A DNA stretch of 64,000 nucleotides from contig CAITJF010000152.1 of the NCBI GenBank assembly GCA_903892645.1, forward strand, positions 2,205 through 66,204, read 5' to 3'. This document shows positions 12,839-49,582 of the stretch, one piece after another; position 1 is the stretch's first letter, and each line of letters begins with the position of its first letter. Origin of the DNA: an uncultured Nitrosomonadales bacterium (GTDB lineage: Bacteria > Pseudomonadota > Gammaproteobacteria > Burkholderiales > Gallionellaceae). The notes below the pieces were generated by a model. The model was not told the origin of the DNA. It saw only the letters and a program-made list of their open reading frames with translations, and ran no database searches. Position numbers and translations under genes: made by a program.

Positions 12839-12930
12839 ACATGTACTCCTCGCATGAGTCGCCTGTTTTGGCTACGCCGAAACCGCCGGATGATGCTTGC
12901 TGCATTCATCATTGCGATGACTGAATTCAT
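12835..12930 (-). CDS. 31-codon bridging micro-ORF between ftsW and murG (coding status uncertain)
   Basis: ATG 12930-12928 overlaps the ftsW TGA (ATGA). Its TGA 12837-12835 overlaps the murG ATG (ATGA). Peptide: [31 protein letters not shown]. Confidence 0.2.
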
Positions 12931-12960
12931 TTTGGCTGGCCTCTCATCATCCGGCGGTTT
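12880..12960 (-). other. Long RNA hairpin spanning the ftsW stop and the ftsW-murG spacer
   Basis: Perfect 16-bp inverted repeat AAACCGCCGGATGATG (12880-12895) / CATCATCCGGCGGTTT (12945-12960) with a 49-nt loop. The loop contains a nested TCATC/GATGA hairpin (12906-12920). Confidence 0.7.
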
Positions 12961-30459: not shown

Positions 30460-31473
30460 TTATTTCCATGGCCGGTGATATGCGCCCAAGGTGTGTTGCT
30501 GGCCTTCGGAGACTTTGCCCAGTTCGACAGTCCATGCGGGTTTGACGGAAAACCCCCCGGGGTTTTTCATGCATTGGTCAATCGCCTCGCGCCAGACACG
30601 AGTGACTTGCCCCACATAGGCCGGGCTTCTCTGCCGCCCTTCGATCTTGAGGCCGCGCACTTTGATGCGCAGCAGTTCCGGCAGCAGTTCCATGGTGTTC
30701 AGGCTGGTAGGTTCTTCCATGGCGTAGTAGGTTTCTCCTTCCACCTCGAAGCGTCCCTTGCACAGGGTGGGATAGCCAGTGTTTTCATCATCGGCGTAGC
30801 GGTCGATGAGTACGCCGTTGAGGCGCGATTCCAGGCCTTGGGCGGTCTTCTGCCAGCGTACGGCTTTGGGCGGCGAGCATACGCCGCAGTTGTTGGGGGA
30901 TTCGCCCGTGACATAGGAGGAAAGTGAACAGCGCCCTTCGACCATGACGCACAGCCCGCCGAAGCCAAAGAGTTCCAGTTCCACCGGCGTGCCGGCGGCC
31001 AGTTCTTCAACCTGGGCAAATGACAGCACGCGCGGCAATACTGCGCGACGGATGCCAAAATACTCGTGGTAGAAATTGATCGCCTCGTAATTGGTGGCGG
31101 AACCCTGCACCGAGAGATGGAGGTGCAACTGGGGATGGGTCCTCATGGCATATTGCATGAGGCCGGGGTCGGCCAGGATGATCGCGTCCATGCCATTATC
31201 GGCGGCCTGGTCTATCGCCTTCGTCCAGCGCTCCCAGCCATGAGACTTGGGGTAGGTATTCAGCGCCAGAAATACTTTCGCACCTTTTTCATGCGCATAT
31301 TCGACACCCGCGCGCGCATTTGCCGCATCGAAATTCAGCCCGGTGAAGTTGCGTGCATTCGTGTCGTCGCGAAAGCCGAGATAGACGCAGTCCGCACCGT
31401 TGTCTACGGCCACTTTCAGCGCCGGCAGGCTGCCTGCCGGGCACACCAGTTCCAGTTTGTATTCAGGCGGCAT
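30460..31473 (-). CDS. ubiU: U32-family O2-independent ubiquinone hydroxylase subunit UbiU (YhbU-like)
   Basis: The likely start is [43 protein letters not shown] at 31473 (the track ORF begins at 31530). Peptidase U32 family. Confidence 0.8.
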
Positions 31474-32464
31474 AAGGGATTTTCTCTTGTTCAAGCGACA
31501 GCTTGGCAAATTCGCCTTGGCGATGGCCACGGCGTTTCAGTTCAAACTCGATCCCATTCAGGATGTTCCACTTTTGCGAACACCAGGATGGAGCAAGCAG
31601 GATGTCTTTTGAGGCAGTGCCGGTGACGCGGTGGTAGACGATATGGGGCGGGGTGCACTCGATCAGGTCAGCCGCGATGCGGATGTAGTCGGCCACTTCC
31701 AGTGGCTGATATTCGCCGCGCCGCCACTCGGCGGCCAGCACGGTATTTTTGACCACATGCAGCGGATGCAGTTTAAGGCCGTCTGTTCCCAAGGCAAGCA
31801 CGGTATCGAGCGAGGAGTGGTAATGGTGTTCCGTTTCTCCGGGAAGGCCGATGATCAGGTGAGTGCATACCGGGATGCCGCGTTTTCTTGCGGCTATTAC
31901 CGTTTTCTCATATTCCTTAAGTCCATGGCCGCGGTTCACCCGCTTGAGAGTCTCGTCAAAGGCTGATTGCAGGCCGAGTTCCAGCCATACCACCAGCCCG
32001 CGCCGCTGATAATCCACCAGCAAATCCAGCACCGCTTCAGGAACGCAGTCAGGGCGCGTGCCGATGGACAGGCCTGCCATATCCGGCTCGGATAATGCTT
32101 CTTCATAGAGTGCTGCCAGTTCGGCGACATCGGCGTAGGTGTTGGTATAGGCCTGAAAATAGGCAAGGAAGCGACGCGCCCGGGTGCGTTTGCCAATAGC
32201 GTGTTTGCCGCTTCTGATTTGCTCGGAAAGTGAAGGCGGGGTGCGCCCATTGGGGCTGAAAGAGGCATTGTTGCAGAAGGTGCATCCTCCCATCCCCTTG
32301 GCGCCATCGCGGTTGGGGCAGGTAAGGCCTGCATCAAGCGCGATCTTGTGCACCCGCTCGCCATGCTGCTGCAACATGTGTTGCCCGAAGGTAAGGATAT
32401 AGTCAGAAAGTGCCATTGATCCGGCACAGTTCGTGAGTGGTGAGCGGAGTAATGGCACCCGCAA
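31463..32464 (-). CDS. TIGR01212-type radical SAM protein (YhcC-like)
   Basis: LTCPNRDGAKGMGGCTFCNN cluster motif. The start may be the internal Met at 32416. Its stop lies 8 nt after the ubiU ATG, an 11-nt overlap. Confidence 0.75.
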   Translation of the reverse strand: MRVPLLRSPLTNCAGSMALSDYILTFGQHMLQQHGERVHKIALDAGLTCPNRDGAKGMGGCTFCNNASFSPNGRTPPSLSEQIRSGKHAIGKRTRARRFLAYFQAYTNTYADVAELAALYEEALSEPDMAGLSIGTRPDCVPEAVLDLLVDYQRRGLVVWLELGLQSAFDETLKRVNRGHGLKEYEKTVIAARKRGIPVCTHLIIGLPGETEHHYHSSLDTVLALGTDGLKLHPLHVVKNTVLAAEWRRGEYQPLEVADYIRIAADLIECTPPHIVYHRVTGTASKDILLAPSWCSQKWNILNGIEFELKRRGHRQGEFAKLSLEQEKIPYAA

Positions 32465-33120: not shown

Positions 33121-33729
33121 TCAGTTGAGCAATAGCTTAATATCATGCACAAGGGCATCCGCTCCTTGTCCATAAGCCGCGTGCAGGCGCAATCTCCCCG
33201 ACGGGTCGTAAATATAGGTTCCGACCGAGTGATCCAACGTATAGTTGGCGGGGCTCTTACCCGGTTCCTTGCTATAAAACAGGTGGTATTCCTTGGCGGT
33301 CTCGGCAATTTGTGCCGGCGTACCGTAGAGGCCCATGAATTTTGGATTAAACGAGGGAACGAATTGAGCCAGAAGTGCCTGAGTATCGCGCTCGGGGTCC
33401 AGGGTTATGAACAGAACCTGCACCTTGTCCGCGTCGGGACCGAGGCGTTTCATTACGAGAGCAAGCTCCGATAATGTATTCGGGCAGGCTTCAGGGCAAT
33501 GCGTGTACCCGAAAAACAATACAACAACTTTACCCTTAAAGTCAGATAAGGTGCGTGGTTTTCCCTGATGATCGGTCAACCGGAAATCTTTTCCGGAGTC
33601 GATCCCGGTAACATTGGTAGACTTGAACGGTTGTGCCGCTTGCGGCTGATTGCAGCCGCACAGGGATGCTATGGCCAGGCTCACAAGTAAAGATTTCAGG
33701 AACGGTTTAAAAAAAGCTGCTCTTGTCAT
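33121..33729 (-). CDS. SCO1/SenC-family copper chaperone / thiol-disulfide protein
   Basis: 202 aa. Lipoprotein-like signal (LAIASLCGC), the CPEAC (CxxxC) motif and a downstream His (LDHSVGTY). Confidence 0.85.
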   Translation of the reverse strand: MTRAAFFKPFLKSLLVSLAIASLCGCNQPQAAQPFKSTNVTGIDSGKDFRLTDHQGKPRTLSDFKGKVVVLFFGYTHCPEACPNTLSELALVMKRLGPDADKVQVLFITLDPERDTQALLAQFVPSFNPKFMGLYGTPAQIAETAKEYHLFYSKEPGKSPANYTLDHSVGTYIYDPSGRLRLHAAYGQGADALVHDIKLLLN

Positions 33730-34357: not shown

Positions 34358-34867
34358 CTATTTTTCCCAGCATGCCTTGGCAAGTTGCGGCAGGTAAGCG
34401 GATAATCCGGCAACGGCGAACTCGGTTTGTACGGGAGCGCTACCGAAGGGAGAGAATTCGAATATAAGTTTTCGAGACTGGGCAAGCCGCTTGATTAACG
34501 TAGCTGCATCGCGTGCGGAAATCGTTGCATTGGTCACTTCGCGCCAGCTCTGGGGGAAGGGTTTGTTGTCATCAAGCTGGAGGTTTACGAGTTGCTTATC
34601 AACCACGGTAACCTCCAGTGCCATCCCGGTTTCAACGTAAACAGATGCTTTTCCTTTTACACATTGAATGGTCAGGACGGGAAAGGAAGTTTTCATCCAG
34701 CCCTCTACCGCCTTTTCTGCCTTAAGCGATAAAGTCAGAGATTCTTCAGCTGTCGAAGGTGTGGGTGAGACCTGCCACTTAGACGATTGCGGTGCGGCTT
34801 CAGCGGCAATCGGGATGGCACAAACGAATAGCAGCAAGAAAGTGCGAACGTATGGGGTAAGCCACAT
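34358..34867 (-). CDS. Hypothetical periplasmic protein
   Basis: The likely start is MWLTPYVRTFLLLFVCAIPIAAEA at 34867 (signal peptide); the track ORF starts at 34927. The C-terminal pattern F.V.GL...L..L..AC is reminiscent of VasI-like proteins, but this is unverified. Confidence 0.5.
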   Translation of the reverse strand: MWLTPYVRTFLLLFVCAIPIAAEAAPQSSKWQVSPTPSTAEESLTLSLKAEKAVEGWMKTSFPVLTIQCVKGKASVYVETGMALEVTVVDKQLVNLQLDDNKPFPQSWREVTNATISARDAATLIKRLAQSRKLIFEFSPFGSAPVQTEFAVAGLSAYLPQLAKACWEK

Positions 34868-35102
34868 AACATCTTTTTTGCAAAACATTTTTTGGCTACA
34901 GTGCTCTTTGTTAAAAAGGGGGGGCATCAGGTTATTCCTCAGTTTTTCGGGATGAGCCAGTGTACCGCAAGAAATATATAATGGTCACGGCGCATATCTG
35001 GTTGTTACGATTTGGTAGCGGTTCGGCGTCTTTAAAAGCTTAAAGCTAAAGGCTGCCATCTCTATGAAAGTTCCTCTCAAGAGCGCTCCATTTTCATGAA
35101 AC

Positions 35103-35609: not shown

Positions 35610-36155
35610 ATGGGTTATTCATTCACAGCACCAGCAAAGAATTGGGCGACCGAACCGATCGAGCGTACCGAAATCTTATGGATCGTTATCGCAGGTTCGT
35701 GGTGTCTTTTCATGTTTTGCTGGATGATTGCCTGGCACTGGATTGGCAATCAAAACATGGCCAACGAAGCGTATAAAACTACGCCGGAAGCTTACGCTAA
35801 AAAAGTCGAGGAATTCACCGCGAAATATACCGTGCGCCAAGACAAGAGCGATCCCAGTTTGCCGGTGGTGGCTCCGCCTCCCGGCAGTGACGTTTATCTG
35901 GCGGCAAGCCGTTGGCAATGGCGTCCGATAGTGGAGTTCCAGAAGGGTAAATCCTACCGTGTGCATATTTCGTCACTGGATTGGGATCATGGCTTTTCCC
36001 TGCAGCCGGAGAATATCAATTTCACGGCTTATCCCGGATACGATGCAGTTGTGACCATGACACCCAACAAGACTGGCACATTTGGCATTGTGTGTAATGA
36101 ATATTGCGGCATCGGTCACCACACCATGCTCGGCAGAATTTACGTAAAGGAGTAG
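35610..36155 (+). CDS. Heme-copper oxidoreductase subunit II, ba3-like, CuA centre intact
   Basis: 181 aa, one N-terminal TM helix and a cupredoxin domain. CuA ligands: H127 (DHGF) and C162-x3-C166-x3-H170-x2-M173 in CNEYCGIGHHTMLGRIYVKE. Confidence 0.85.
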   Translation: MGYSFTAPAKNWATEPIERTEILWIVIAGSWCLFMFCWMIAWHWIGNQNMANEAYKTTPEAYAKKVEEFTAKYTVRQDKSDPSLPVVAPPPGSDVYLAASRWQWRPIVEFQKGKSYRVHISSLDWDHGFSLQPENINFTAYPGYDAVVTMTPNKTGTFGIVCNEYCGIGHHTMLGRIYVKE

Positions 36156-36158
36156 GAA

Positions 36159-37856
36159 ATGGCTATAACTACCGCACAATCACCCTTTCGCACGGACCCG
36201 CTGACCGGTCTGCGCATTGACCTGACCGCCCAAGCACTGGTGAAGGTCAATGCAGTACTCGCCGTCGTGTTCCTGCTGGTCGGCGGAACTGCCGGCTTGC
36301 TGGTCGCCTTGACGCGCTGGCCGGCGGTGCACTTGCTGCCCGCTGACCTGTTCTATATGGCGCTCACCGCACACGGCATTGTAGCGCTCATGGTGTGGAT
36401 CATCTTTTTCGAAATAGCGGTGCTGTATTTCGTAGCCTCGACCTTGCTTAGCTGCCGGTTGGCGGCGCCAAAACTGGCTTGGACGCAGGTTGTGCTGATG
36501 GTTGTTGGCGCAGCCATGACTTTTGTCGCAATCCTGCAAGGCGATTCCAGCGTCATGATGACGTCTTATGTGCCGATGAATGCCGCCCCGCATTTCTACC
36601 TGGGCTTGATCCTGTTTGCGGTGGGTGCGCTAATTGGTTGCGGCGTATTCTGGGGTACATTAGTGATCGCTGCGGAAGAAAAGACCTACGAAGGCACGTT
36701 GCCGCTGACGGTGTATGGTTGCGTAATCGCCACGATTATCGCGGTTTTCACCATCGCTTCTGGTGCCATCATCCTGATCCCGACGTTCCTGTGGTCGCTG
36801 GGCCTGATCAAGAGCATAGACCCGATGATGTATCGCGTAATCTGGTGGGCGTTCGGCCACTCGTCGCAGCAAATCAACGTGACCGCCCATATTACGATTT
36901 GGTACACGGTTGCCGGTCTGGCGTTCGGCGCCAAGCCGATGTCGGAAAAAGTGAGCCGTACCGCTTTCCTGTTGTATATCTGCTTCCTGCAATTTGGTTC
37001 GGTGCACCACTTGTTGTCCGATCCGGGATTGAGCTCGGCGTGGAAAATCTTCAACACCAGCTACATGATGTATCTGGCGGTGTTGGCCAGCTTGATTCAC
37101 GGTCTGACCGTGCCTGGTTCGATCGAAGTGGCGCAGCGCAGGAGCGGGTTGAACAATGGCCTGTTCGAGTGGCTGCGTAAATGTCCCTGGGGCAATCCGG
37201 TATTCTCCTCCACGATCCTGTCGATCATCATTTTCGGCTTTATCGGCGGCGTTACCGGGGTGGTGATGAGTGTGGAGCAAGTTAATATGATCATCCACAA
37301 CACCATCTATGTGCCGGGGCATTTCCACGGTACGGTGGCGGGCGGTACTACGCTGGCTTTCATGGGACTGACCTACTATCTGATCCCGGTGCTGTTTCAG
37401 CGCCAAGTCATCATGAAGCCGTTGGCAGCCTTGCAGCCTTGGTTGTTTGGCATCGGGACATCGATATTCGCGATTGCCATAATGGGTGCGGGAACCTTGG
37501 GTGTGCCACGCCGTCATTGGGATGTCACTTTTGCTGGGCAGGCGCTGGGTTTTGAATGGCCCGGTATGGCGCAAATGATGTTAGCCATCGGCGAAATAGG
37601 CGGTGTCATAGCGGTGTTGGGTGGCGCATTGTTCTGCGTGATCGTGGTGGGTTCCATCCTGATCGGCGAGCCGGTTCCAGCAAATGCCAAGAATATCGTG
37701 GCGCCTCCCGCCGATGCGGGCGGTCACAAGGAAATCGGTATGGGTGGCTTCGAAGCCCCAGGTACCTTTATCTTGGCCATGGTGCTGTTTGTAACCCTCG
37801 TGCTCTACTACTTCGTCAACTTCAAGTATCTGGCCACTCTGTGGACATTGACCTGA
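36159..37856 (+). CDS. Heme-copper oxidoreductase subunit I, B-family-like but lacking the cross-link tyrosine (candidate NO reductase)
   Basis: 565 aa. Ligand set H72, H234, H283/H284 and H388/H390. The residue four positions after the first CuB His is Gln (GHSSQQ, codon 36870-36872) rather than the Tyr of GHPxVY. Confidence 0.85.
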   Translation: MAITTAQSPFRTDPLTGLRIDLTAQALVKVNAVLAVVFLLVGGTAGLLVALTRWPAVHLLPADLFYMALTAHGIVALMVWIIFFEIAVLYFVASTLLSCRLAAPKLAWTQVVLMVVGAAMTFVAILQGDSSVMMTSYVPMNAAPHFYLGLILFAVGALIGCGVFWGTLVIAAEEKTYEGTLPLTVYGCVIATIIAVFTIASGAIILIPTFLWSLGLIKSIDPMMYRVIWWAFGHSSQQINVTAHITIWYTVAGLAFGAKPMSEKVSRTAFLLYICFLQFGSVHHLLSDPGLSSAWKIFNTSYMMYLAVLASLIHGLTVPGSIEVAQRRSGLNNGLFEWLRKCPWGNPVFSSTILSIIIFGFIGGVTGVVMSVEQVNMIIHNTIYVPGHFHGTVAGGTTLAFMGLTYYLIPVLFQRQVIMKPLAALQPWLFGIGTSIFAIAIMGAGTLGVPRRHWDVTFAGQALGFEWPGMAQMMLAIGEIGGVIAVLGGALFCVIVVGSILIGEPVPANAKNIVAPPADAGGHKEIGMGGFEAPGTFILAMVLFVTLVLYYFVNFKYLATLWTLT

Positions 37857-37881
37857 TGGGCGCAAGTTGACCTAAGGCGTG

Positions 37882-37918
37882 CCAAAACGGTGGGAGGTTT
37901 TTTCTCCTGCCGTTTTGG
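37882..37918 (+). other. Stem-loop between subunit I and the heme O synthase gene
   Basis: Perfect 9-bp stem CCAAAACGG (37882-37890) / CCGTTTTGG (37910-37918), extended by a partial inner GGGAG/CTCC pairing. No trailing U-run follows. Confidence 0.4.
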
Positions 37919-37971
37919 AGTTAAAGGCACAAGGTGTGGATATTTCACGCCCAACCACTTGGGGTTTGTAT

Positions 37972-38829
37972 ATGGGAACAGCTATTAAACAAGTTACCGA
38001 TTTGTTCAAGTTAAGGATCGGTATCGTCATCAGCTTCACTGCATTGGCTGGTGTGGCGGTAACGCCGGGTTCGCTGGCTGGCTGGAAAATTGTATTGTTG
38101 GGGCTTGCGGTGTTGATTTCTTCAGCCAGCGCGGGTGCATTCAATCAATACGTTGAGCGGGATATTGACGTGCGCATGGCGCGCACCTGTAAGCGTCCCT
38201 TTGTCACCGGCACGCTTCAGCATGGCCCGTTCTGGCTGTGCGTGATTCTTGTCATGCTGGCAGGTTCGGTGTCGGCGGCAGTAGTGGCGCTCAATTCCGT
38301 CTCGGCCCTGTTTGTATTTTTGGGGGCGTTTTTCTATGCTGTGGTTTACACAGTTTGGTTGAAACGTCGTACCTGGATGAACATCGTGATCGGCGGATTG
38401 GCCGGTAGTTTCGCGGTGCTGGCAGGAGCCGCTGCGGTAAACCCGCAGCTAAGCTCGCAAGCGTTGATTCTGGCAGGAATATTGTTTTTGTGGACACCAC
38501 CGCATTTCTGGAGCTTGGCAATCGCCTATCACAAGGATTACGATGCCGCAAAAGTCCCCATGTTGCCGGTGGTGGTGGGTGACGAACGCGCTGCACGCAT
38601 TATTTTTGGCAGCACTGTGCTGCTGGTGGCGACTTCGTTGATGCCGGTTTTCTACGGCATGGGCTGGATTTATTTCATTGGTGCGGCGAGCGGCGGTGCG
38701 TATTTTCTGCTGAAAAGCGTGCAGTTGATGCGTATGCCAAATCGTGCAACAGCGATGTCATGCTTCCATGCTTCACTCATGCAATTGAGTCTATTGCTGA
38801 CCGCAGCGATGATAGACGCGTCTTTGTAG
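37972..38829 (+). CDS. ctaB: Protoheme IX farnesyltransferase (heme O synthase)
   Basis: The likely start is MGTAIKQVTDLFKLRIGIVISFTALAG at 37972 (track ORF from 37879). UbiA-family motif NQYVERDIDVRMARTCKRPFVTG. Confidence 0.88.
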   Translation: MGTAIKQVTDLFKLRIGIVISFTALAGVAVTPGSLAGWKIVLLGLAVLISSASAGAFNQYVERDIDVRMARTCKRPFVTGTLQHGPFWLCVILVMLAGSVSAAVVALNSVSALFVFLGAFFYAVVYTVWLKRRTWMNIVIGGLAGSFAVLAGAAAVNPQLSSQALILAGILFLWTPPHFWSLAIAYHKDYDAAKVPMLPVVVGDERAARIIFGSTVLLVATSLMPVFYGMGWIYFIGAASGGAYFLLKSVQLMRMPNRATAMSCFHASLMQLSLLLTAAMIDASL

Positions 38830-38837
38830 TTTTGCCG

Positions 38838-39686
38838 ATGCGTCTATGGCTGTTGCTGGGCCTGTTGGGGATGGCGGGAGCGGCGTTTGCCTCAGGGGGA
38901 AACGTTCAACCCGCAGCACCCGTTAAATTCGATCAAAAATCTGCATTGCAATTCAGTCAAAGTGTAGTCGGCCAGCAGATGGCCGACTATGCCTTGCTTG
39001 ACCGCAACGGTCAGGCAGTCAGGCTTTCCAGTTATCGCGGCAAGCCGGTGCTGGTGAGCTTTATTTATACCGGTTGTTCGGTAACCTGCCCCGCCACCAC
39101 ACAATATCTTGCCAAAGCGGTCAAATACATGCAGAACGCTCTTGGTGCTGACAGCTTCCAGGTGTTGACTGTCGGCTTCAATGCCCCTTGGGATTCGCCA
39201 CAGGCGATGCGCGATTTTGCTTCACGGCAAAATATCAAGTTGCCACACTGGGAGTTTCTGAGTGCAGATGCGGCAACCATGCAGAATTTCACGCGAGACC
39301 TCGGATTCAGCTACGCCTATTCGGTCACTGGTTTCGATCATATTTCCCAGCTCACCTTGCTTGACCAGGAAGGCAAGGTTTATCGCCAAATATACGGTGA
39401 TAATTTCGAGTTGCCTCAGATGGGTGAGCCGTTAAAAAAACTGGTGGGCAATGTGCAAACCCAGTATCCCGGTTGGGAGGGTTTGAGCAACCGCATTCGC
39501 TTGTTCTGTACCGTTTATGATCCCAGCACGGGATCCTATACCACCGATTATTCGTTTTTCTTCGGCATATTTATCAGCTTGGTGATGACTTATTACTTCG
39601 TCAAATGGATTGTCCGTGAATGGCGCCGCGCCCCACGCCGCAACCCTCCCAAAGCCAATGAGGCAGTTGAAATAAAACCATCCTAG
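38838..39686 (+). CDS. SCO1/SenC-family protein with C-terminal membrane helix
   Basis: The likely start is MRLWLLLGLLGMAGAAFA at 38838. It has the thioredoxin-like CSVTC (CxxxC) motif, a conserved His (FDHISQ) and the C-terminal TM FFFGIFISLVMTYYFV. Confidence 0.8.
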   Translation: MRLWLLLGLLGMAGAAFASGGNVQPAAPVKFDQKSALQFSQSVVGQQMADYALLDRNGQAVRLSSYRGKPVLVSFIYTGCSVTCPATTQYLAKAVKYMQNALGADSFQVLTVGFNAPWDSPQAMRDFASRQNIKLPHWEFLSADAATMQNFTRDLGFSYAYSVTGFDHISQLTLLDQEGKVYRQIYGDNFELPQMGEPLKKLVGNVQTQYPGWEGLSNRIRLFCTVYDPSTGSYTTDYSFFFGIFISLVMTYYFVKWIVREWRRAPRRNPPKANEAVEIKPS

Positions 39687-39863: not shown

Positions 39864-41795
39864 GTGGTCATGATCAAGTTGATACAGCGTATTGGGCAGG
39901 GTCTGTTGCTGCGTGTGGAAAAAGGATTCAATGCCATTTTCGGCGCGGAGCTGAATCCGTTGTACCAGCTTGGCGCCATTTTGTTTTTCCTGTTCTGGGT
40001 GGTATTGGGGAGCGGGTTTTATCTTTACGCGTTTTATCGCACCGGAGTAAGCGAGGCGTATTCTTCGGTCGATAAAATCACCCACGAACAATGGTATCTG
40101 GGCGGTATCATGCGCAGCCTGCACCGCTATGCCTCGGATGGCATGGTGGTCTTGGTGCTGGTGCACATGGCGCGCAATTTTGTGATGAACCGCTTGAGCG
40201 GCTTCCGTGCTTTTTCCTGGCTTACCGGTATCGTGCTCCTGCTACTGTTAATTATTTCCGGCATCAATGGCTACTGGCTGGTGTGGGATCAGCTTGCGCA
40301 ATTCGTTGCCGTGGCCAGCACGGAATTCCTGGACTGGCTGCCGGTTTTCGTCTCCCCATTGGTGCGCAATTTCCTGACCCCGGACAGCATCAATGACCGT
40401 TTCTTCTCGTTGCTGTCTTTCATGCATTTGGGCATTCCGCTTGGGATGCTGATTTTCATCATGGTTCACACCCAACGGGTGAGCGGAGCCAAGACCCAGC
40501 CTTCGAGGCCACTTGCGATTGGACTAGGCCTTACGCTGCTGGTGCTGGCTCTGGTTAAGCCAGCTTTGAGCCAGGGCGGCCAGGCTGACCTGAGCACGAT
40601 TGCCGCGCAAATCAAGCTGGACTGGTTTTTCATGGCGGTTTACCCACTGATTTATATGTGGTCGCCGAACCAGTTGTGGGCGCTGGTTGGTGGCTTCCTG
40701 GCTTTTCTCCTGCTGTTGCCATTGCTGGCGCGCACCAAACGCATGAGCGAAGGTTTCCAGATCACCACTGCGCCGAGCATGCGCACCTTTACGGCCAAGC
40801 CGGGTGAAACTGTATTGGAAGCAGCGTTGCGTCAGGATATTCGGCTGCCTTACACATGTCGCGATGGAGCCTGCGGAAATTGCAAGGGCACCATTCTGCA
40901 TGGGGCGGTTGATTATGGCGTGCATCAGGAAGATGCCTTGAGCGAGCAGGACAAGCAGGCAGGCAAGGCGTTGTTCTGCTGCGCCACGCCGTTGTCCGAT
41001 ATGGAAATTGAATATTACGAAAATGAAACACTGAAACAAGTCCCAGTGAAGCTCATGCAGTGCCGTGTACATAAGATGGTGCGCGCCACGCCGGATGTGA
41101 TGGTGCTGTATTTGAAAATGCCGCAGGGCAGTAAACTGCAATTTTTTGCCGGCCAATATCTCGACATTCTGCTGGAGGATGGTGCACGCAGAAGCTTCTC
41201 GTTCGCCAATGCCCCGCACGATGACGGATTTATCCAATTGCACATCCGTCTAATTCCAGGCGGCAAGTTCACCAATCATGTGTTCACGCAAATGAAGGAA
41301 GGCGACGAGCTGAGCTTTGAAGGCCCGCTTGGTACTTTCTTCCTGAACGAGAAAAGTGATATGCCGATAATTTTTGTGGCCGGCGCTACTGGCTTCGCAC
41401 CAGTGAAAAGTATGTTGGATCACGCTTTTTACACTGGCTCCAAGCGCCGTATGCTGTTGTACTGGGGGGTGAAAATGCGCAAAGATTTATACATGGCCGA
41501 TTTGCCGGAGCTCTGGCAACGGGAGCACGACAATTTTACTTTTATACCGGTGCTGTCCGAGCCGGGGCCGGATGATAACTGGCAGGGGCGTACCGGCTTG
41601 GTGCATGAGGCCATTTTGCAGGATCACCCTGACCTGAGTGGCTTCCAGGTTTATGCTTGCGGCTCGATGCTAATGGTACAGGCAGCGCGTCCGGCTTTTC
41701 TCGCGCAGGGGTTGCCGGAAAATGCATGTTTTTCGGATGCCTTCCTGTTGCCTACACATAAGGTAGCGCAACCTGCCGTGGAGGTGCAACCATGA
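39864..41795 (+). CDS. Fusion protein: cytochrome b-type membrane domain + plant-type 2Fe-2S ferredoxin + FNR-like FAD/NAD(P)H reductase
   Basis: Start at GTG 39864 or ATG 39870. Four heme-ligand His sit in cytochrome b context (SLHRYASD, LVHMARNF, FMHLGIP, MVHTQR). Also present: CRDGACGNC...CC, then RSFSF, GPLG and GATGFAP motifs. Confidence 0.8.
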   Translation: MVMIKLIQRIGQGLLLRVEKGFNAIFGAELNPLYQLGAILFFLFWVVLGSGFYLYAFYRTGVSEAYSSVDKITHEQWYLGGIMRSLHRYASDGMVVLVLVHMARNFVMNRLSGFRAFSWLTGIVLLLLLIISGINGYWLVWDQLAQFVAVASTEFLDWLPVFVSPLVRNFLTPDSINDRFFSLLSFMHLGIPLGMLIFIMVHTQRVSGAKTQPSRPLAIGLGLTLLVLALVKPALSQGGQADLSTIAAQIKLDWFFMAVYPLIYMWSPNQLWALVGGFLAFLLLLPLLARTKRMSEGFQITTAPSMRTFTAKPGETVLEAALRQDIRLPYTCRDGACGNCKGTILHGAVDYGVHQEDALSEQDKQAGKALFCCATPLSDMEIEYYENETLKQVPVKLMQCRVHKMVRATPDVMVLYLKMPQGSKLQFFAGQYLDILLEDGARRSFSFANAPHDDGFIQLHIRLIPGGKFTNHVFTQMKEGDELSFEGPLGTFFLNEKSDMPIIFVAGATGFAPVKSMLDHAFYTGSKRRMLLYWGVKMRKDLYMADLPELWQREHDNFTFIPVLSEPGPDDNWQGRTGLVHEAILQDHPDLSGFQVYACGSMLMVQAARPAFLAQGLPENACFSDAFLLPTHKVAQPAVEVQP

Positions 41796-42304
41796 GCCAG
41801 CCGCTGAAATACTTGGGGCAAGGGCTAGCCTACGCGCTGTTCGCCGTGGTGCTTGGTTATTTCTCCACTTCACCGGAGTACGCGCACTTGCCGGCGGATT
41901 CCGCGCTGCTTAAGCTGAGTTTCAACCACGCGGCCCAGCGAAAGAAACCGTGCCACGAGCGCACCGACGAGGAAATGGCCAAGCTGGCAAAAAATATGCG
42001 GATACGCAAGGATTGTCCGCGCGAACGCTCCGACGTGGTGGTGGAGTTGGAGATGGACGGCAAGCAGTTGTACCATGTCGTGCTGCACCCGCCCGGCCTG
42101 TCGCATGACGGTGCCGCTTCAATATATCGCCGCCTGCCGGTGCCGGCAGGCCCCCATCGTTTCGTGGCGCGCCTGAAGGATATGGAGGGGGGCGATTTCA
42201 GCTTTGTGCACGAGGAAAACATTACTCTTGGCGCCGGCAAGGTAATGGTGATTGATTTCAAGGCCGACGTTCCCGGCGCCCCCGGCTTTATGTTTAAGAG
42301 TTAG
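41792..42304 (+). CDS. Membrane-anchored hypothetical protein, translationally coupled to the preceding gene
   Basis: Its ATG overlaps the upstream TGA (ATGA at 41792-41795). It has an N-terminal TM (LAYALFAVVLGYF) and a ~130-aa soluble domain with two Cys. No family recognised. Confidence 0.6.
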   Translation: MSQPLKYLGQGLAYALFAVVLGYFSTSPEYAHLPADSALLKLSFNHAAQRKKPCHERTDEEMAKLAKNMRIRKDCPRERSDVVVELEMDGKQLYHVVLHPPGLSHDGAASIYRRLPVPAGPHRFVARLKDMEGGDFSFVHEENITLGAGKVMVIDFKADVPGAPGFMFKS

Positions 42305-42310
42305 GACAAC

Positions 42311-43717
42311 ATGACTATTCCCGTGGAAGCGAACTCTCCTTATGATGCGCCGCCGGATGTTGGCGGTGTGTATGCGTTGCCCACGCCGCATCAAGCCAGC
42401 CAGCGCTTGGCTGCCGGCTGGCTGTGGCTGAGTTTTGCCGCACTGGTGGGGGCAGGTTTTTTTGCTCTGCTGGTAGTGATGGCGCGTACACCTTATGTGT
42501 CCGATATTTTTCCCACGGTAGATTTTTTCCGTAGCGCCCTGGTGGTGCATGTGGATTTGTCGGTGCTATTGTGGTTCTTTGCTTTCGCCGGTGTGCTGTG
42601 GGGTGCAGCCTCCCCTCCAAAGTGGATGCCCCTCGGTTGGGTAGCGCTGTTGCTGGCGGTGGTAGGCGTGATAGTGGTTGTGGTTTCGCCGTTTGTCAGC
42701 ACCGGCGGGCCGCTCATGAATAACTATATTCCGGTGCTGGAAAACAGGGTGTTCCTTACCGGTTTGTTCCTGTTTGGTTGCGGTATCGGGTTGCTTGCCT
42801 TGCGTGGCCTGCTGACGATTCCCCTCACCGGGTTTGGTGCAAATAGAGATGGCGGCATACTTTGTTTCGGCCTTTATACTGCCGCAGTGGCGACGACGAT
42901 GGCGCTCATCGCATTTTCCTGGGCATTCGCAACCATTCCGTTTTTTGTGCGCGGTCTTCCTTATTACGAGGCGCTGTTTTGGGGTGGTGGGCATGTGATG
43001 CAATTCGCCTATACCCTGCTGATGTTGGTTGGCTGGTTGTGGCTGTCCTCTGAATGCGGTGCCCAGGTGCCATTAACTCCGCGCATATCACTGTTCCTGT
43101 TCGCCTTGGGGGTTGCACCGGTGCTGTTTACACCGCTGATCTACGCCCTTTATGAGACCAATACCGGCGATAACATGGGAATGTTCATCTGGATGATGAA
43201 AATCGGTGGCAGCCTGGCGGCTGTGCCGATTGGGCTGGCGGTAGCGTATGCAATGGGGAACCGTGGCTATCCTGACCCTTCGAAGCGTCCGCTGTTTGCT
43301 GCCTTGCTGTGTTCGATGGTTTTGTTTGCGGTGGGCGGTGGCATTAGCCTCATGATCAAGGATAGCAACACCATCATCACCGCGCATTATCATGGTACCG
43401 GGGGCGCTGTGAGCCTGGCTTTCATGGGGCTGGCTTTTGTGCTGCTGCCCAAGCTGGGGTTTCGTGCGCCTGATTTGAAGCTTGCCAGCTGGCAGCCTTA
43501 TGTGTACGGTATCGGGCAGTTGCTGCACATCATCGGGCTGCTGTGGTCGGGTGGGTACGGCGTGCAACGCAAGGTCGCTGGAGCAGCCCAGGAATTGCAC
43601 AGTTTCGGGCAGGTCGCCGGAATGGGATTGATGGGAATAGGCGGGTTAATCGCCGTGATCGGCGGCCTGATGTTTCTGGTGGTGGTGTTTCGTGCAATGA
43701 GGGGGCGAACACGTTAG
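42311..43717 (+). CDS. Heme-copper subunit-I-like 12-TM protein lacking two CuB histidines
   Basis: 468 aa. It retains H80 (VVHVDLSVLLWFF), H228 (WGGGHVMQF) and H359/H361 (AHYHGT). The HH position, 49/50 residues after H228, is I277-Y278 (codons 43139-43144). Confidence 0.75.
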   Translation: MTIPVEANSPYDAPPDVGGVYALPTPHQASQRLAAGWLWLSFAALVGAGFFALLVVMARTPYVSDIFPTVDFFRSALVVHVDLSVLLWFFAFAGVLWGAASPPKWMPLGWVALLLAVVGVIVVVVSPFVSTGGPLMNNYIPVLENRVFLTGLFLFGCGIGLLALRGLLTIPLTGFGANRDGGILCFGLYTAAVATTMALIAFSWAFATIPFFVRGLPYYEALFWGGGHVMQFAYTLLMLVGWLWLSSECGAQVPLTPRISLFLFALGVAPVLFTPLIYALYETNTGDNMGMFIWMMKIGGSLAAVPIGLAVAYAMGNRGYPDPSKRPLFAALLCSMVLFAVGGGISLMIKDSNTIITAHYHGTGGAVSLAFMGLAFVLLPKLGFRAPDLKLASWQPYVYGIGQLLHIIGLLWSGGYGVQRKVAGAAQELHSFGQVAGMGLMGIGGLIAVIGGLMFLVVVFRAMRGRTR

Positions 43718-43804
43718 CGCCGCAGGCGGCCATTACGCCACGCTTTTCGGCTTTGTAGCTCGTTACGACTTCTCTTATTTTGACAGCAACGTAGTTTGCA
43801 TAGA

Positions 43805-45382
43805 ATGCGCAAATATCTACAAAACTTGTTGCTGCGTCTGGAAAACGCATTCAATGCGCCGTTCGGTCAGGCATTGAATCCTTGGTACCACCTCGGCGCG
43901 ATCACCTTTTATCTGTTCTGGATCGTGGTGGTAAGCGGCGTTTATCTCTATATCTTTTACCGAACCGGGGTGGATGAAGCCTACCAGTCGGTCGAACGCC
44001 TTACCCATGATCAATGGTATGCCGGCGGCGTGATGCGCAGCCTGCACCGCTATGCTTCTGACGGCATCGTGGTGACGATGCTGCTGCATATGCTGCGCAA
44101 TTTTATTACCGGACGTTTCCACAGCTTCCGCTGGTTTTCCTGGGTGAGCGGGGTTTTTCTGATCTGGCTGGTTTACACTTGCGGCATCAACGGCTACTGG
44201 ATGGTGTGGGACAGGCTGGCGCAATTCATTGCCGTGGGCACTGCGGAATGGTTCGATTGGATGCCGCTGTTCAGCCAGCCGCTGGCGCGCAACTTTCTCG
44301 TGCAAGGCGATGTCAATGATCGCTTCTTTGCACTGCTGTCGTTTGCCCACATCACCATTCCGCTGGTATTGCTGCTGTTCATGTGGATACATACCAAGCG
44401 CATGAACCACGCCGAAACCAACCCTCCCCTGCGCCTTGCGGTCGGCACGCTGCTTATGCTGCTGGCGCTGTCGCTGGTCAAGCCGGCGCTAAGCCACGCA
44501 CATGCCGATCTGGCGCTGTTGCCTGATGTGATCCGACTTGACTGGTTTTATCTGGCGCCGTATCCGCTGCTTTATATCTGGTCGCCTGGCGCGGTGTGGG
44601 TGTTGGTTGGCGGGATTACCGCGCTGCTCCTATTGGTGCCGTGGTTATTCAGGCCGCGCACGCGCCCTGCGGTGGCGGAGGTGCATCTGGACAATTGCAA
44701 CGGTTGTGCACGTTGCGCTGCCGACTGTCCTTATTCGGCCATTGTGATGCATCCGCGCCAGGACGGCAGGCCGCACCAATTACAGCCAGTGGTAGATCCG
44801 GACTTGTGCGCAAGTTGCGGCATTTGCGTCGGTGCCTGTCCATCTTCCATGCCGTTCCGCAGTAACGAACTGGTGAGCGGTATCGAGTTGCCGGATCAGG
44901 AGTTGGCGACGCTACGTGCAGGTATTGATCGTACACTGGCGGTGTTGCACGGCGATGCGCGCGTTATGGTGTTTGGCTGCGATTGTGCCTACGATGTGCA
45001 TGCATTGCAGTCGGAGGGAGTGGCGGCGCTTTCGCTCCCCTGCATCGGCATGCTGCCACCAGCGTTTATTGACTACGTGCTGCGCGACGCACGTGTTGAT
45101 GGGGTGATGGTTGCCGGTTGCCGTGAAGGGGATTGCCAATACCGTCTTGGCATCCGCTGGACGGAGTTGCGCCTGGCACGCCAGCGAGTACCGCATTTGC
45201 GCCAGCGAGTGCCACTTCAGCGTATCGAGTTTTGTTGGGCCGGCATACAGGATGATGAGCGGGCACGCGCGGAACTCGGCACTCTGCGTGCGCGGGTGGC
45301 GCAACTGCCGCGAGAAATAATCATGGAAGAGGATTCGCGAGAGCATGAACGCCAGTCCGGTGACAAAAACCAACCTGATTAA
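43805..45382 (+). CDS. Fusion protein: cytochrome b-type membrane domain + 2x[4Fe-4S] ferredoxin + MvhD/FlpD-like domain
   Basis: The likely start is ATG 43805 (MRKYLQNLLLRLENAF, parallel to its paralogue); the track ORF starts at 43796. The N-terminal half is a paralogue of 39864..41795 with the same four His. Then come CNGCARCAADCP and CASCGICVGACP, then FGCDC...LPCIGML...VAGCREGDCQYRLG. Confidence 0.8.
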   Translation: MRKYLQNLLLRLENAFNAPFGQALNPWYHLGAITFYLFWIVVVSGVYLYIFYRTGVDEAYQSVERLTHDQWYAGGVMRSLHRYASDGIVVTMLLHMLRNFITGRFHSFRWFSWVSGVFLIWLVYTCGINGYWMVWDRLAQFIAVGTAEWFDWMPLFSQPLARNFLVQGDVNDRFFALLSFAHITIPLVLLLFMWIHTKRMNHAETNPPLRLAVGTLLMLLALSLVKPALSHAHADLALLPDVIRLDWFYLAPYPLLYIWSPGAVWVLVGGITALLLLVPWLFRPRTRPAVAEVHLDNCNGCARCAADCPYSAIVMHPRQDGRPHQLQPVVDPDLCASCGICVGACPSSMPFRSNELVSGIELPDQELATLRAGIDRTLAVLHGDARVMVFGCDCAYDVHALQSEGVAALSLPCIGMLPPAFIDYVLRDARVDGVMVAGCREGDCQYRLGIRWTELRLARQRVPHLRQRVPLQRIEFCWAGIQDDERARAELGTLRARVAQLPREIIMEEDSREHERQSGDKNQPD

Positions 45383-46299
45383 CGCCTGCGCAGCCGGTAG
45401 TTAAGTGACACCAGAATGAGCAGCAGGAATGCCGCTGTGGCGTTATGAAGCAGCACCAGAAAAAGCGGCAGGCTGTATGCCACGGCGCTGATTCCCAGAG
45501 CGACTTGCAGCGTGAGCGCGGCGATCAGCAGCATGCCGCTGCGCCGCAAATTTTCCCGGATCAGGCAGGCTCCTAACCAGGCAAGATAACAAAACACCAG
45601 CAGCGCGGAGAAACGGTGCGCCATGTGCAAAGTCTGCTGCGCAGCACCCGGAATGAAGTTGCCGCCCTGTGGCACTTTCAACACCTGAAAAGGATTGAAG
45701 TCCGCCAGTGATGCGTGCTGTAGCCATCCATCGCAGCCGGATGGACCGGTGCAGCTTAAGGCAGCGAAACTCGCACTGACCATGCCCCCCAGCGTTATTT
45801 GTACCACGAGCAGCCCCAACCCCAGTGATACCCACCTGCGCAAACGTGAAGAGGCAGCGTATCGAGGCACGTATCCGAGATGTAATCGCCACAGCAGCGC
45901 CAGCATTCCCAGGCCGCCGAGCAGGTTGCCGAGCGCAACCGCTGGCAGGTGTGCGTTGTGCGTCCATTTGCCGAGCACTGCAAGGAAAGCCGTTAGCCCC
46001 AATAATGCCAGCGCAGGCGGAAAATCACCGGGTGCCACGCGGCGGCGGCGCCAGGCGAGTGAGGTAATGGCAAGGGCGGTAAAACCCATGGTGCTCGCCG
46101 CAATGCGGTGAGTGGTATTTATCCAGTTCGGATGGGGAGGGGCAAGGCCAGCCAGATTGTGTCCATAACATGCAGGCCGGTCGGGGCAGCCCAACCCGGC
46201 GCCAGTCAGGCGCATGTGGGCACTTAGCAAGATGATTATCGCCATTAGTGCGAAGGTGAACAGCACCAAGCCGTGGAATACGCGATTACCGTCAGCCAT
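45379..46299 (-). CDS. ctaA: Heme A synthase (COX15/CtaA family)
   Basis: 306-aa polytopic protein with N-terminal LLSAHMRLTGAGLGCPDRPACYG and paired His-containing helices. Its stop overlaps the convergent gene's stop (TTAA at 45379-45382). Confidence 0.8.
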   Translation of the reverse strand: MADGNRVFHGLVLFTFALMAIIILLSAHMRLTGAGLGCPDRPACYGHNLAGLAPPHPNWINTTHRIAASTMGFTALAITSLAWRRRRVAPGDFPPALALLGLTAFLAVLGKWTHNAHLPAVALGNLLGGLGMLALLWRLHLGYVPRYAASSRLRRWVSLGLGLLVVQITLGGMVSASFAALSCTGPSGCDGWLQHASLADFNPFQVLKVPQGGNFIPGAAQQTLHMAHRFSALLVFCYLAWLGACLIRENLRRSGMLLIAALTLQVALGISAVAYSLPLFLVLLHNATAAFLLLILVSLNYRLRRR

Positions 46300-47318: not shown

Positions 47319-48053
47319 CTAGAGGAATTGCGGCGGCGGGCCGACGTAGGCTTGTAACCCAGGCAGATTATGAAGCTCCACCGATTTGTTGCGTATGTTA
47401 ATCAACCCGATCCCCTGGAAGTGTGACAGTGTGCGGCTGACCGTTTCCAGCTTCATCCCGAGATAGCTGCCGATTTCCTGGCGCGTCATGCGCAAATGGA
47501 ATGATGTGGGCGAGTAACCGCGTGTGGCAAAGCGCTGCGACAGGTTAAGCAGGAAGGCAGCCAAACGCTCTTCTGCGCGCATCGAGCCGAGCAGCAGCAT
47601 GATGCCTTGGTCACGCACGATCTCGCGGCTCAGGATGCGGTGCAGGTGGCGTTGCAGAGAGGGTAATTTGCGGCTGAGTTCCTCCAGTTGGCTAAAAGGG
47701 ATCTCGCATACCTCGCTGTCTTCCAAGGCGATCGCATCGCAGGTATGTGCATCGCTGCTGATGGCATCCAACCCGATGATTTCCCCTGCCATTTGGAAGC
47801 CGGTGACCTGTTCGCGGCCATCTTCGTGCAGCACTTGGGTCTTGAAAAAACCGGTACGGATGGCATATAGAGACTGGAATTTTGCGCCACTGCGGTATAA
47901 GTAATCGCCGCGCTGGTATGCGTGCTTCAGGCTGATTAAGTCATCCAGCTGCTCCAAGTCAGCCTCAGTGAGTTTCCTGGGCAGGCACAGCTCACGCAAG
48001 TTACAGCCGGAACAGGCGACTCTTAGCGGGGTTAGAGAGACGGATTTTTGCAC
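47319..48053 (-). CDS. fnr: FNR-type O2-sensing Crp/Fnr family regulator
   Basis: 244 aa. N-terminal Cys cluster ACSGCNLRELCLP plus an internal Cys. cNMP-like domain and the HTH recognition motif ETVSRTL (E--SR). Confidence 0.88.
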   Translation of the reverse strand: MQKSVSLTPLRVACSGCNLRELCLPRKLTEADLEQLDDLISLKHAYQRGDYLYRSGAKFQSLYAIRTGFFKTQVLHEDGREQVTGFQMAGEIIGLDAISSDAHTCDAIALEDSEVCEIPFSQLEELSRKLPSLQRHLHRILSREIVRDQGIMLLLGSMRAEERLAAFLLNLSQRFATRGYSPTSFHLRMTRQEIGSYLGMKLETVSRTLSHFQGIGLINIRNKSVELHNLPGLQAYVGPPPQFL

Positions 48054-48178: not shown

Positions 48179-49582
48179 ATGTCCTCAAATATAAAAGCAT
48201 CATCCGAATTAGAAGTTGATCTGGAGTTAATCCGCAGGCTGGACAAGAACGGCCCGCGTTACACCTCCTATCCTACCGCCGACCGTTTTGTCGAGGCGTT
48301 CAATGCCGAAAGCTACCGCAATTGGGTGGCCAAGCGCGAGATTGGCGGTATCAACCGTCCGCTGTCGTTGTATGTGCACATTCCATTCTGCAATACACTG
48401 TGCTTTTACTGCGCCTGCAACAAGGTGATCACCAAAGATCGCAGCAGGGCGGAAGATTATGTCCGCTACCTGATCAAGGAGCTGGCCATGCAGGCTGCCT
48501 TGCTGGGCGATGGGCAGCGCGTTGAACAGTTGCATTGGGGTGGCGGCACCCCAACCTTTCTGAGCGACGACCTGATGCGCGAATTAATGGGTGCTACCCG
48601 AAAGCATTTCAAGCTGGTGGAAAATGGTGAGTATTCCATTGAAATAGACCCGCGCAAAGTCAGCGACCAGACCATCATCCTGCTTGGCGAATTGGGCTTC
48701 AATCGTATCAGCATCGGTGTGCAGGACTTTGATCCGTTGGTGCAGCGCGCGGTAAATCGTATCCAAAGTGAGGCAGAAACGCTGCAGGTGATCCGCGCGG
48801 CGCGTGCCAACGGCTTCAAGTCGGTTAGTCTCGATCTCATTTATGGGTTGCCCAAGCAGACCCTGACGGGCTTTAAAGCCACTCTGGAGAAGGTGATTGC
48901 CGCCAATCCGGATCGCCTGTCCATCTACAACTATGCGCACATGCCCACCATTTTCAAGCCGCAGCGCCGTATCCACGAGGAAGACTTGCCCTCGCCGCAG
49001 GTCAAGCTGGATATTCTCAGCCTCGCGGTCAAGACGCTGACTGATGCCGGTTATGTGTATATCGGCATGGATCACTTTGCCAAGCCAGATGATGAGTTGG
49101 CGATAGCGCAGCGCCAAGGCAGGCTGCACCGCAATTTCCAGGGCTATTCCACGCATTCCGACTGTGACCTGGTGGCGATAGGGGTGAGTTCCATCGGCAA
49201 GATCGGCCCTACCTACAGCCAGAATTTCCGTGAGCTGGAAGATTACTACGACGCGCTTGACCGTGACGAATTGCCCATCATGCGCGGCATGGAACTGAAT
49301 TCAGACGACCTGGTGCGTCGCGCCATCATCCAGGCCCTGATGTGCCATTTCGAGCTTTCCAAGGAATCTTTCAACATCGCCTACCTCATCGACTTTGATC
49401 GCTACTTCGCCACCGAACTCGGTGAGCTGAAGGAATACGAGCGCGAAGGGCTGCTCAAGCTCACGCCGGAGTGGATCAGCGTCACGCCAAAGGGGCGCAT
49501 GCTAATCCGCAATATCTGCATGGTGTTCGACAAATATCTGCGCACGAGACAGGAACATGCACGCTATTCCAAGGTCATATAG
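48179..49582 (+). CDS. hemN: Oxygen-independent coproporphyrinogen III oxidase (radical SAM)
   Basis: 467 aa. HIPFCNTLCFYCAC (CxxxCxxC) and GGGTPTFL motifs. Confidence 0.93.
   Translation: MSSNIKASSELEVDLELIRRLDKNGPRYTSYPTADRFVEAFNAESYRNWVAKREIGGINRPLSLYVHIPFCNTLCFYCACNKVITKDRSRAEDYVRYLIKELAMQAALLGDGQRVEQLHWGGGTPTFLSDDLMRELMGATRKHFKLVENGEYSIEIDPRKVSDQTIILLGELGFNRISIGVQDFDPLVQRAVNRIQSEAETLQVIRAARANGFKSVSLDLIYGLPKQTLTGFKATLEKVIAANPDRLSIYNYAHMPTIFKPQRRIHEEDLPSPQVKLDILSLAVKTLTDAGYVYIGMDHFAKPDDELAIAQRQGRLHRNFQGYSTHSDCDLVAIGVSSIGKIGPTYSQNFRELEDYYDALDRDELPIMRGMELNSDDLVRRAIIQALMCHFELSKESFNIAYLIDFDRYFATELGELKEYEREGLLKLTPEWISVTPKGRMLIRNICMVFDKYLRTRQEHARYSKVI

Follow-up and report, generated by a model that had tools for sequence, protein, structure and literature searches.

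Within a 64,000-nucleotide (nt) stretch of DNA from an uncultured Nitrosomonadales bacterium of the family Gallionellaceae (GenBank assembly GCA_903892645.1, contig CAITJF010000152.1, positions 2,205 to 66,204 of the forward strand), hereafter the window, lies a plus-strand gene at 42311..43717 that encodes a 468-amino-acid (aa) paralogue of subunit I of the heme-copper oxidases (HCOs). The assignment draws on a COX1 match, an AlphaFold2 (AF2) model, and alignments; the open reading frame (ORF) is intact and opens with ATG, with an AGGA Shine-Dalgarno sequence 8 nt 5' of the start. By its sequence, this target protein is a subunit I paralogue that keeps the ligands of two hemes and would be unable to form either the canonical CuB/FeB site or the His-Tyr cofactor. 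We term the lost site CuB/FeB because the neighboring enzyme is an eNOR-type NO reductase. Minus-strand ORFs inside or overlapping the target (43088-43600, 42566-43003, 42119-42550, and 43530-43850) had no Pfam match and were treated as spurious.

An earlier reading of this DNA, made from sequence only, had named the ligand positions of the target, and each was confirmed in the translation: H80 within VVHVDLSVLLWFF, H228 within FWGGGHVMQF, with F232 at +4 from H228, and H359/H361 within AHYHGT. That reading had also measured a spacing of 49/50 residues between the helix VI His and the HH pair of the neighboring subunit I (36159-37856), which we confirmed (H234 to H283/H284), and at this spacing the target carries I277-Y278 (codons ATC TAC, 43139-43144), a placement with which the alignment to ba3 oxidase agrees. 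The target has seven His in total (27, 80, 228, 359, 361, 406, and 430) and none in residues 229-358, so a shifted HH pair is impossible; nor does the family have a conserved His column in that span. The protein retains H228-x2-Q231 and a heme-propionate Arg-Lys pair, R420/K421. This residue pattern supports the proposal that the ligands of two hemes are retained and that a canonical CuB site with its His-Tyr cofactor could not be assembled.

The proposal of a 12-helix, subunit-I-type protein held up in fold and profile comparisons. Pfam COX1 matched residues 34-435 of the target on positions 3-423 of its 436-position profile (E = 4.6e-10, 39.4 bits with a cut-off of 34.8), and hhalign paired the target with the neighboring subunit I, to which it is about 29% identical, at a probability of 99.1% (E = 5.8e-19). 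The AF2 model has 12 long transmembrane (TM) helices (pLDDT 80, pTM 0.85), and its best Foldseek matches were subunit I of ba3 and aa3 oxidases (TM-score 0.65-0.74, probability 1.0). Together, the Pfam, hhalign, and Foldseek results rule out an unrelated transporter. Sequence searches of the PDB with the single target protein and with a close-family profile gave no match. A HMMER profile of 112 diverse family members matched only B-family ba3 chains in the PDB (E ~1e-20), scored 174 bits against the window eNOR subunit I, and did not match an A-family COX1, indicating that the clade derives from the B-family/eNOR side. The sequence-only reading could not assign the protein to a described family. 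This stands for the model libraries, where NCBIfam has no model matching the target and Pfam offers only the generic COX1, but an orthologue in Ferrigenium straubiae has already been labeled in a preprint, discussed below.

In the profile alignment to Thermus thermophilus ba3, target H80 corresponds to H72, H228 to H233, Q231/F232 to V236/Y237, I277/Y278 to H282/H283, H359/H361 to H384/H386, and R420/K421 to R449/R450. In the hhalign alignment to the neighboring subunit I, Y278 falls on the second His of the pair, a gap stands opposite the first His, and I277 falls on the preceding Val. The target thereby resembles ba3 and eNOR subunit I in its predicted 12-TM fold, its bis-His low-spin site, its proximal His, and its equivalent of the propionate Arg pair, and, like the window eNOR, it has a Gln three residues after the helix VI His. 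It differs from them in that only H228 is present of the three CuB/FeB His, with Ile/Tyr standing for H282/H283, and F232 occupies the position of the cross-link Tyr, ba3 Y237, which is Gln in eNOR; Y278 itself lies in helix VII at a His position where no cross-link site is known. Whereas eNOR is defined by three active-site His, a Gln for the cross-link Tyr, and a CuA subunit II (Hemp & Gennis, 2008; Murali et al., 2024), the target has one of these His and Phe at the Gln position. Its K-type proton path appears non-polar, with ba3 Y248, S309, T312, and T315 aligned to Leu/Trp, Val/Pro, Gly/Leu, and Val/Leu in two independent alignments, an outcome that is provisional at the ~15-30% identity of these alignments. 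The target is also shorter by about 100 residues, its p-side loops are short, and no cupredoxin subunit II adjoins it. It would offer two predicted heme pockets without canonical second-metal ligands, the Tyr/Gln, or polar K-path residues, and we infer that terminal reduction of O2 or NO is not its function.

We then asked how far these features extend among relatives. A word-indexed search returned more than 5,000 relatives of the target, and HMMER, run exhaustively against 1.84 billion cluster representatives, yielded 1,593 matches at E <= 1e-3 and 718 at E <= 1e-30, for a family of about 700 clusters at 50% identity that spans several proteobacterial orders and includes one metagenome-assembled genome labeled Bacteroidota. 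Across 81 species-level sequences, H80, H228, Q231, P275, Y278, H359, Y360, H361, H406, R420, and K421 are invariant, and no further conserved His column occurs. Among the 150 best representatives of 50%-identity clusters, which are 32-50% identical to the target, the pattern H...H-x2-Q...HYH...RK (H80, H228, Q231, H359, H361, R420, K421) is near-universal. Position 277 in these representatives is nearly always a residue other than His, mainly hydrophobic (His in two), and position 278 is Tyr in 76, Phe in 17, His in 12, and Gln in 7, with other residues in the remainder. Phe occupies position 232 in 113 of the 150, and Asp is outside the commonest residues at 277 or 278. An HH pair at 277/278 was found in none of the 81 species-level orthologues and none of the 150 representatives, and Y278 is invariant in the former; the absence of the HH pair first seen in the single protein proves to be conserved among homologues.

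The ratio of nonsynonymous to synonymous substitution rates (dN/dS) between the target and seven close relatives is 0.09-0.15, compared to 0.09-0.13 for eNOR subunit I. The F. straubiae preprint (bioRxiv 10.64898/2026.01.22.701106) reports that the orthologue is transcribed and gives it a proteome value of 28.0 in culture KS, where eNOR I and II stand at 31.6 and Sco1 at 24.7. Absence of the HH pair is fixed throughout a family that evolves under purifying selection, and it does not stem from decay. Absence of two of three metal ligands and of the catalytic Tyr/Gln could be taken to mean that the target is a decaying or functionless copy of the neighboring subunit I gene, but we consider this so improbable as to be negligible: its dN/dS matches the value for the catalytic subunit, no disruption of the ORF occurs in the window or in any of the 80 related genome loci, about 718 clusters (50% identity, E <= 1e-30) share a signature of their own, and the target is just ~29% identical to its supposed parent. 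A pseudogene is ruled out by the dN/dS values, the family size, and the detection of the orthologous F. straubiae protein by proteomics.

The target is part of an eNOR operon whose members are all encoded on the plus strand. Library matches identify eNOR subunit II, a small cupredoxin/COX2-like protein (35610..36155), and this is followed by the eNOR-type NO reductase subunit I (36159..37856; H72, H234, H283/H284, H388/H390). We assign the latter to eNOR because its GHSSQQ motif has Gln at the cross-link Tyr position, the published eNOR diagnostic, with HH at 283/284; it is 66% identical to its F. straubiae orthologue, which was classified as eNOR in the preprint (bioRxiv 10.64898/2026.01.22.701106). 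Next come genes for the heme O synthase CtaB/CyoE (37879..38829; TIGR01473, 272 bits) and a SCO1/SenC copper chaperone recognized by Pfam (38760..39686). The longest SCO1 ORF overlaps the end of ctaB by 70 nt (38760-38829), and the true SCO1 start is therefore probably further downstream. Scans for internal signals gave no clear excess over shuffled sequence for promoters in the operon (8 versus 8.2) or for terminators (22 versus 15.5 +/- 3.8), and internal sites were treated as uninformative.

Two cytochrome b fusions complete the operon, together with a small protein that we call p170. The first fusion (39864..41795) joins a diheme cytochrome b (H87/H101/H188/H202) to plant-type [2Fe-2S] ferredoxin, FAD, and NAD(P) domains (the FNR fusion), and the second (43796..45382) joins a b6-like diheme cytochrome b (H84/H98/H185/H199) to two [4Fe-4S] motifs and a FlpD/MvhD-like domain (the Fer4-FlpD fusion). 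All four heme His are kept in both cytochrome b domains, as H-x13-H in each of two helices, and both fusions have two more predicted TM helices beyond the four-helix diheme core. The PEWY motif and the C-terminal half are lacking from both window fusions, which consequently have the appearance of transmembrane electron wires rather than quinol-oxidizing bc-type cytochromes; the name "Cytbc1-like" given to such fusions in the preprint may mislead. The target had been described as flanked by the two cytochrome b genes; the downstream fusion does adjoin it, but the gene immediately upstream encodes p170.

The p170 gene (41792..42304) encodes 170 aa with an N-terminal TM helix and a beta-sandwich, and its product matches no Pfam family and no NCBIfam model. 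Its start overlaps the upstream stop (ATGA) and its end lies 6 nt before the target, to which it is probably translationally coupled. C54 and C75 are invariant, and the structure model shows a beta-sandwich with one N-terminal TM helix (pLDDT 88). As a cryptic cupredoxin or subunit II, p170 found no backing: hhalign gave a probability of 0.3% against the window COX2, Foldseek against the PDB found nothing at E <= 1e-3 (the nearest being the N-terminus of HGSNAT, a TM helix plus beta-sandwich), and the Pfam search was negative. The earlier statement that the target has no subunit II of its own holds in that no cupredoxin subunit II is adjacent, but p170 could play the subunit II part.

At the operon end, a gene for the heme A synthase COX15/CtaA (45379..46299, minus strand) is convergent with a 4 nt overlap, and a Crp/Fnr-family regulator (47319..48053, minus strand) lies downstream of the cluster as context, as does HemN (48179-49582, plus strand). 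Upstream, a second SCO1/SenC gene (33121-33729, minus strand, 152 bits) lies 2 kb from the eNOR operon, with a 189-aa ORF without a family match between them (34358-34927, minus strand). Further upstream on the minus strand are two Peptidase_U32 genes (29538-30449 and 30460-31530) and a radical-SAM gene (31463-32464). The U32 pair resembles the O2-independent ubiquinone hydroxylases UbiU/UbiV, and the eNOR cluster thus seems to be embedded in an island of biosynthesis genes for low-oxygen conditions. A radical-SAM gene and two U32 genes also adjoin a distant family member (locus L170).

To determine which genes accompany the family elsewhere, we retrieved 80 loci from species-representative genomes of Gallionellaceae, other Nitrosomonadales and Burkholderiales, Acidiferrobacterales, Chromatiales, Thiotrichales, Ca. 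Parabeggiatoa, and Muproteobacteria, and counted neighbors in the 53 loci that were flanked by 5 kb or more in each direction. The cytochrome b-Fer4-FlpD fusion was present in 51 of the 53, SCO1 in 50, eNOR I, p170, and CtaB in 49 each, the FNR fusion in 43, and CtaA in 24. p170 lies directly 5' of the target homologue in 66 of 75 scorable loci, and synteny of all operon parts is conserved across Gallionellaceae. The FNR fusion is lineage-restricted, mainly Gallionellaceae-like, with distant taxa having the cytochrome b-Fer4-FlpD fusion, p170, and the paralogue only; the Fer4-FlpD fusion accompanies the family across phyla.

Distant members of the family (33-41% identity) occupy two kinds of place. 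The first is an eNOR operon comprising eNOR II, eNOR I, CtaB, SCO1, the cytochrome b-Fer4-FlpD fusion, a p170-like protein, sometimes a hemerythrin, and the paralogue, often followed by NosR and NirS genes. The second has no eNOR, cytochrome b, or p170, and here the paralogue adjoins a heme A synthase gene that lies directly upstream or divergent, or stands beside aa3 operons with CtaA, CtaB, SURF1, and Cox11. The sequence-only reading had raised the possibility that homologues always neighbor the cytochrome b fusions; these other lineages, carrying the family beside CtaA/aa3 genes with no cytochrome b nearby, contradict it. Of 21 metagenome loci with flanks of at least 5 kb, 14 were of the eNOR type, seven of the CtaA/CtaB/aa3 type, and none of neither, and the active-site signature is identical in the two contexts. 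Mixed gene orders also occur, namely CtaA-CtaA-SCO1-[paralogue]-PCuAC and hemerythrin-CtaA-x-SCO1-[paralogue].

Hemerythrin-domain genes were seen in the module at five loci (L081 4818-5210, L084 9571-9972, L087 9435-9836, L171 7037-7426, and L068 6178-6657), where they either separate the paralogue from the cytochrome b-Fer4-FlpD fusion or from p170, or come first in an operon of the order hemerythrin-CtaA-x-SCO1-paralogue; no hemerythrin gene occurs in the window. The placement of an O2-/NO-binding hemerythrin beside the O2-dependent heme A synthase may be meaningful. Natural fusions join the paralogue to an N-terminal diheme cytochrome b (P0241) and to a C-terminal UbiA/heme O synthase domain (P0320), and in a further set (P0247, P0276, P0305, P0318, P0347, P0350, P0359, and P0369) the paralogue continues into a thirteenth TM helix and then a periplasmic TPR domain.

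The only report on this family that emerged from literature on copper-less subunit I paralogues, on "heme-copper oxidase family protein," and from assembly-factor reviews was the F. straubiae preprint. It labels the product of IMG gene 2878407321, annotated K02274, as an "eNOR scaffold protein" of unknown function and notes that its presence in eNOR operons is common (bioRxiv 10.64898/2026.01.22.701106). The corresponding gene of F. straubiae KS (L023 9935-11350) encodes a protein 60% identical to the target over 96% of its length, in the order eNOR II, eNOR I, heme o synthase, Sco1, cytochrome b-FNR, hypothetical protein, paralogue, cytochrome b-FeS. In the text searched, "scaffold" is a name only, with no function, residue analysis, or scaffold evidence attached, and there is no link to CtaA/aa3 contexts, no mention of fusions, and no experiment on the paralogue; the family is noticed there, not characterized. 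The cytochrome b fusions are deemed unusual in that text, whereas we find the Fer4-FlpD fusion conserved across phyla. The F. straubiae locus also has a minus-strand ORF of 567 aa (L023 11678-13381) that overlaps nearly all of the cytochrome b-Fer4-FlpD gene (11753-13312, plus strand), and at the place between the paralogue and the second cytochrome b fusion the preprint has a "PerM" gene (2878407322), whose product went undetected by proteomics; one of the two gene calls could be spurious.

The same preprint raises the idea that the target would be the structural scaffold of a respiratory supercomplex, with eNOR and the two cytochrome b fusions using NO reduction to drive the uphill reduction of NAD+ (bioRxiv 10.64898/2026.01.22.701106). 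We regard this as quite improbable, although several observations are in keeping with it: the preprint reports that proteomics under Fe(II)/nitrate detected eNOR I/II, SCO1, the paralogue, and both cytochrome b fusions, the synteny of all parts is kept in Gallionellaceae, and autotrophic Fe(II) oxidizers require reverse electron flow. Set against these, the cytochrome b domains are without the C-terminal half and PEWY that form the Qo site, and so there is no obvious site for quinol:NAD+ chemistry. The FNR fusion is absent in most paralogue-bearing lineages, the family also occurs with aa3/CtaA genes outside denitrification contexts, and transfer from the p-side to cytoplasmic NAD+ would be uphill both electrically and in redox terms.

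The main rival to the accessory role favored below, and a less likely one, is that the target serves a membrane redox enzyme of its own as a heme-only subunit for catalysis or as an electron sink. In such an enzyme, cytoplasmic NAD(P)H/Fe-S donors would deliver electrons via FNR/ferredoxin or Fer4-FlpD domains to the two b hemes, and these would pass them across the membrane to the two hemes of the paralogue. There, with H228, Q231, and Y278 lining a site that has no copper, NO, O2, or a related molecule would be reduced or transformed. Both heme sites, R420/K421, W224, H228, Q231, and Y278 are strictly conserved, and Y139 has a Tyr as its counterpart in eNOR subunit I. Q231 aligns with ba3 V236, a residue at the end of the gas channel, of which the PDB matches show only that several mutants have been crystallized. 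The apparent translational coupling to p170, the adjacency of the cytochrome b fusions with all four heme His in both domains, and the natural cytochrome b-paralogue fusion (P0241) are consistent with such an enzyme, as are the fairly high abundance of the orthologue in the F. straubiae proteome and the position of the cluster among denitrification genes (NirS, NosR) in other lineages. However, the same signature also stands beside CtaA/aa3 genes at loci where cytochrome b, p170, and denitrification genes are all missing from the surroundings, the K-type proton path is not retained, the FNR fusion is confined to certain lineages, and HCO chemistry with a single His at the second metal site has no known precedent.

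Heme-a enzyme machinery is the sole feature common to all contexts, and we therefore favor a reading, to which we assign a probability of roughly one half, in which the target is a non-catalytic, heme-binding accessory protein that matures heme-a enzymes, eNOR here and aa3 elsewhere. Like eNOR, aa3 oxidases require heme a. R. marinus eNOR is reported to carry heme As in both heme sites, to depend on the O2-requiring CtaA, and to be active in vitro when isolated. As an accessory, the target would act with CtaA, CtaB, and SCO1, for instance by storing heme a/As or passing it on, or by carrying electrons while heme a is made and inserted. In eNOR operons it would probably form a membrane complex with p170 and the diheme cytochrome b fusions, which could wire it to cytoplasmic Fe-S centers and NAD(P)H.

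Several observations weigh against an accessory role. Both heme sites are kept and the distal cluster H228/Q231/Y278 is strict, which fits a redox or catalytic role at least equally; the tight link to diheme cytochrome b/Fe-S proteins, including the cytochrome b fusion, also fits such a role, as does a protein abundance of the F. straubiae orthologue above that of SCO1. CtaA lies within 10 kb in only ~45% of close genome loci, and the CtaA genes of F. straubiae are located elsewhere. The neighborhood of biogenesis genes may also follow in part from membership of an oxidase or NOR operon itself.

A more specific version, which we consider unlikely, makes the clade a copper-free two-heme redox partner of CtaA, an electron relay or oxidant activator that would enable synthesis of heme a (As) at very low O2. 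The cytochrome b/Fe-S fusions, with the ferredoxin-FNR fusion where present, would then provide NAD(P)H-driven transmembrane electron input, comparable to Arh1/Yah1 for mitochondrial Cox15, and the hemerythrins of the same operons could serve as O2 carriers.

The accessory role finds its nearest analogy in the heme a insertion and assembly factors Surf1/Shy1, with CtaA-CtaB. Surf1 consists of a periplasmic domain and two TM helices. The likeness is one of functional analogy only: the family keeps company with CtaA, CtaB, SCO1, SURF1, Cox11, and PCuAC, and its proposed job, handling heme a between the synthase and subunit I, would be similar, whereas there is no kinship in sequence or fold, with Pfam finding COX1 only in the target. 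By active site, the closest comparison is gNOR, also a B-family-side HCO in which an otherwise invariant active-site His is replaced, and the first superfamily member reported with such a replacement, by a metal-ligating Asp (Murali et al., 2024; PMC11214002). In gNOR one His gives way to Asp and the enzyme is predicted still to be an NO reductase with a cupredoxin subunit, whereas the target family replaces two His, including by a non-ligating aliphatic residue, and is without the proton path.

All functionally assigned HCO members in the literature consulted have a heme next to a second metal with three ligands, gNOR being the reported first exception. The clade described here goes beyond gNOR in having lost two ligands, the Tyr/Gln, and the proton path while its heme pockets are kept under strong selection, which argues that an oxidase scaffold has been re-used for a purpose other than O2 or NO reduction. 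Annotations matter for metabolic reconstruction, as for database entries P0003, P0015, P0071, P0085, P0117, P0395, P0416, P0455, and others; annotated as they are, family members would be counted as terminal oxidases in reconstructions of iron oxidizers and denitrifiers. The family is a candidate for heme a supply or insertion in bacterial enzymes, including as an electron donor to CtaA, and for maturation of the heme-a-dependent eNOR in denitrifiers at near-zero oxygen.

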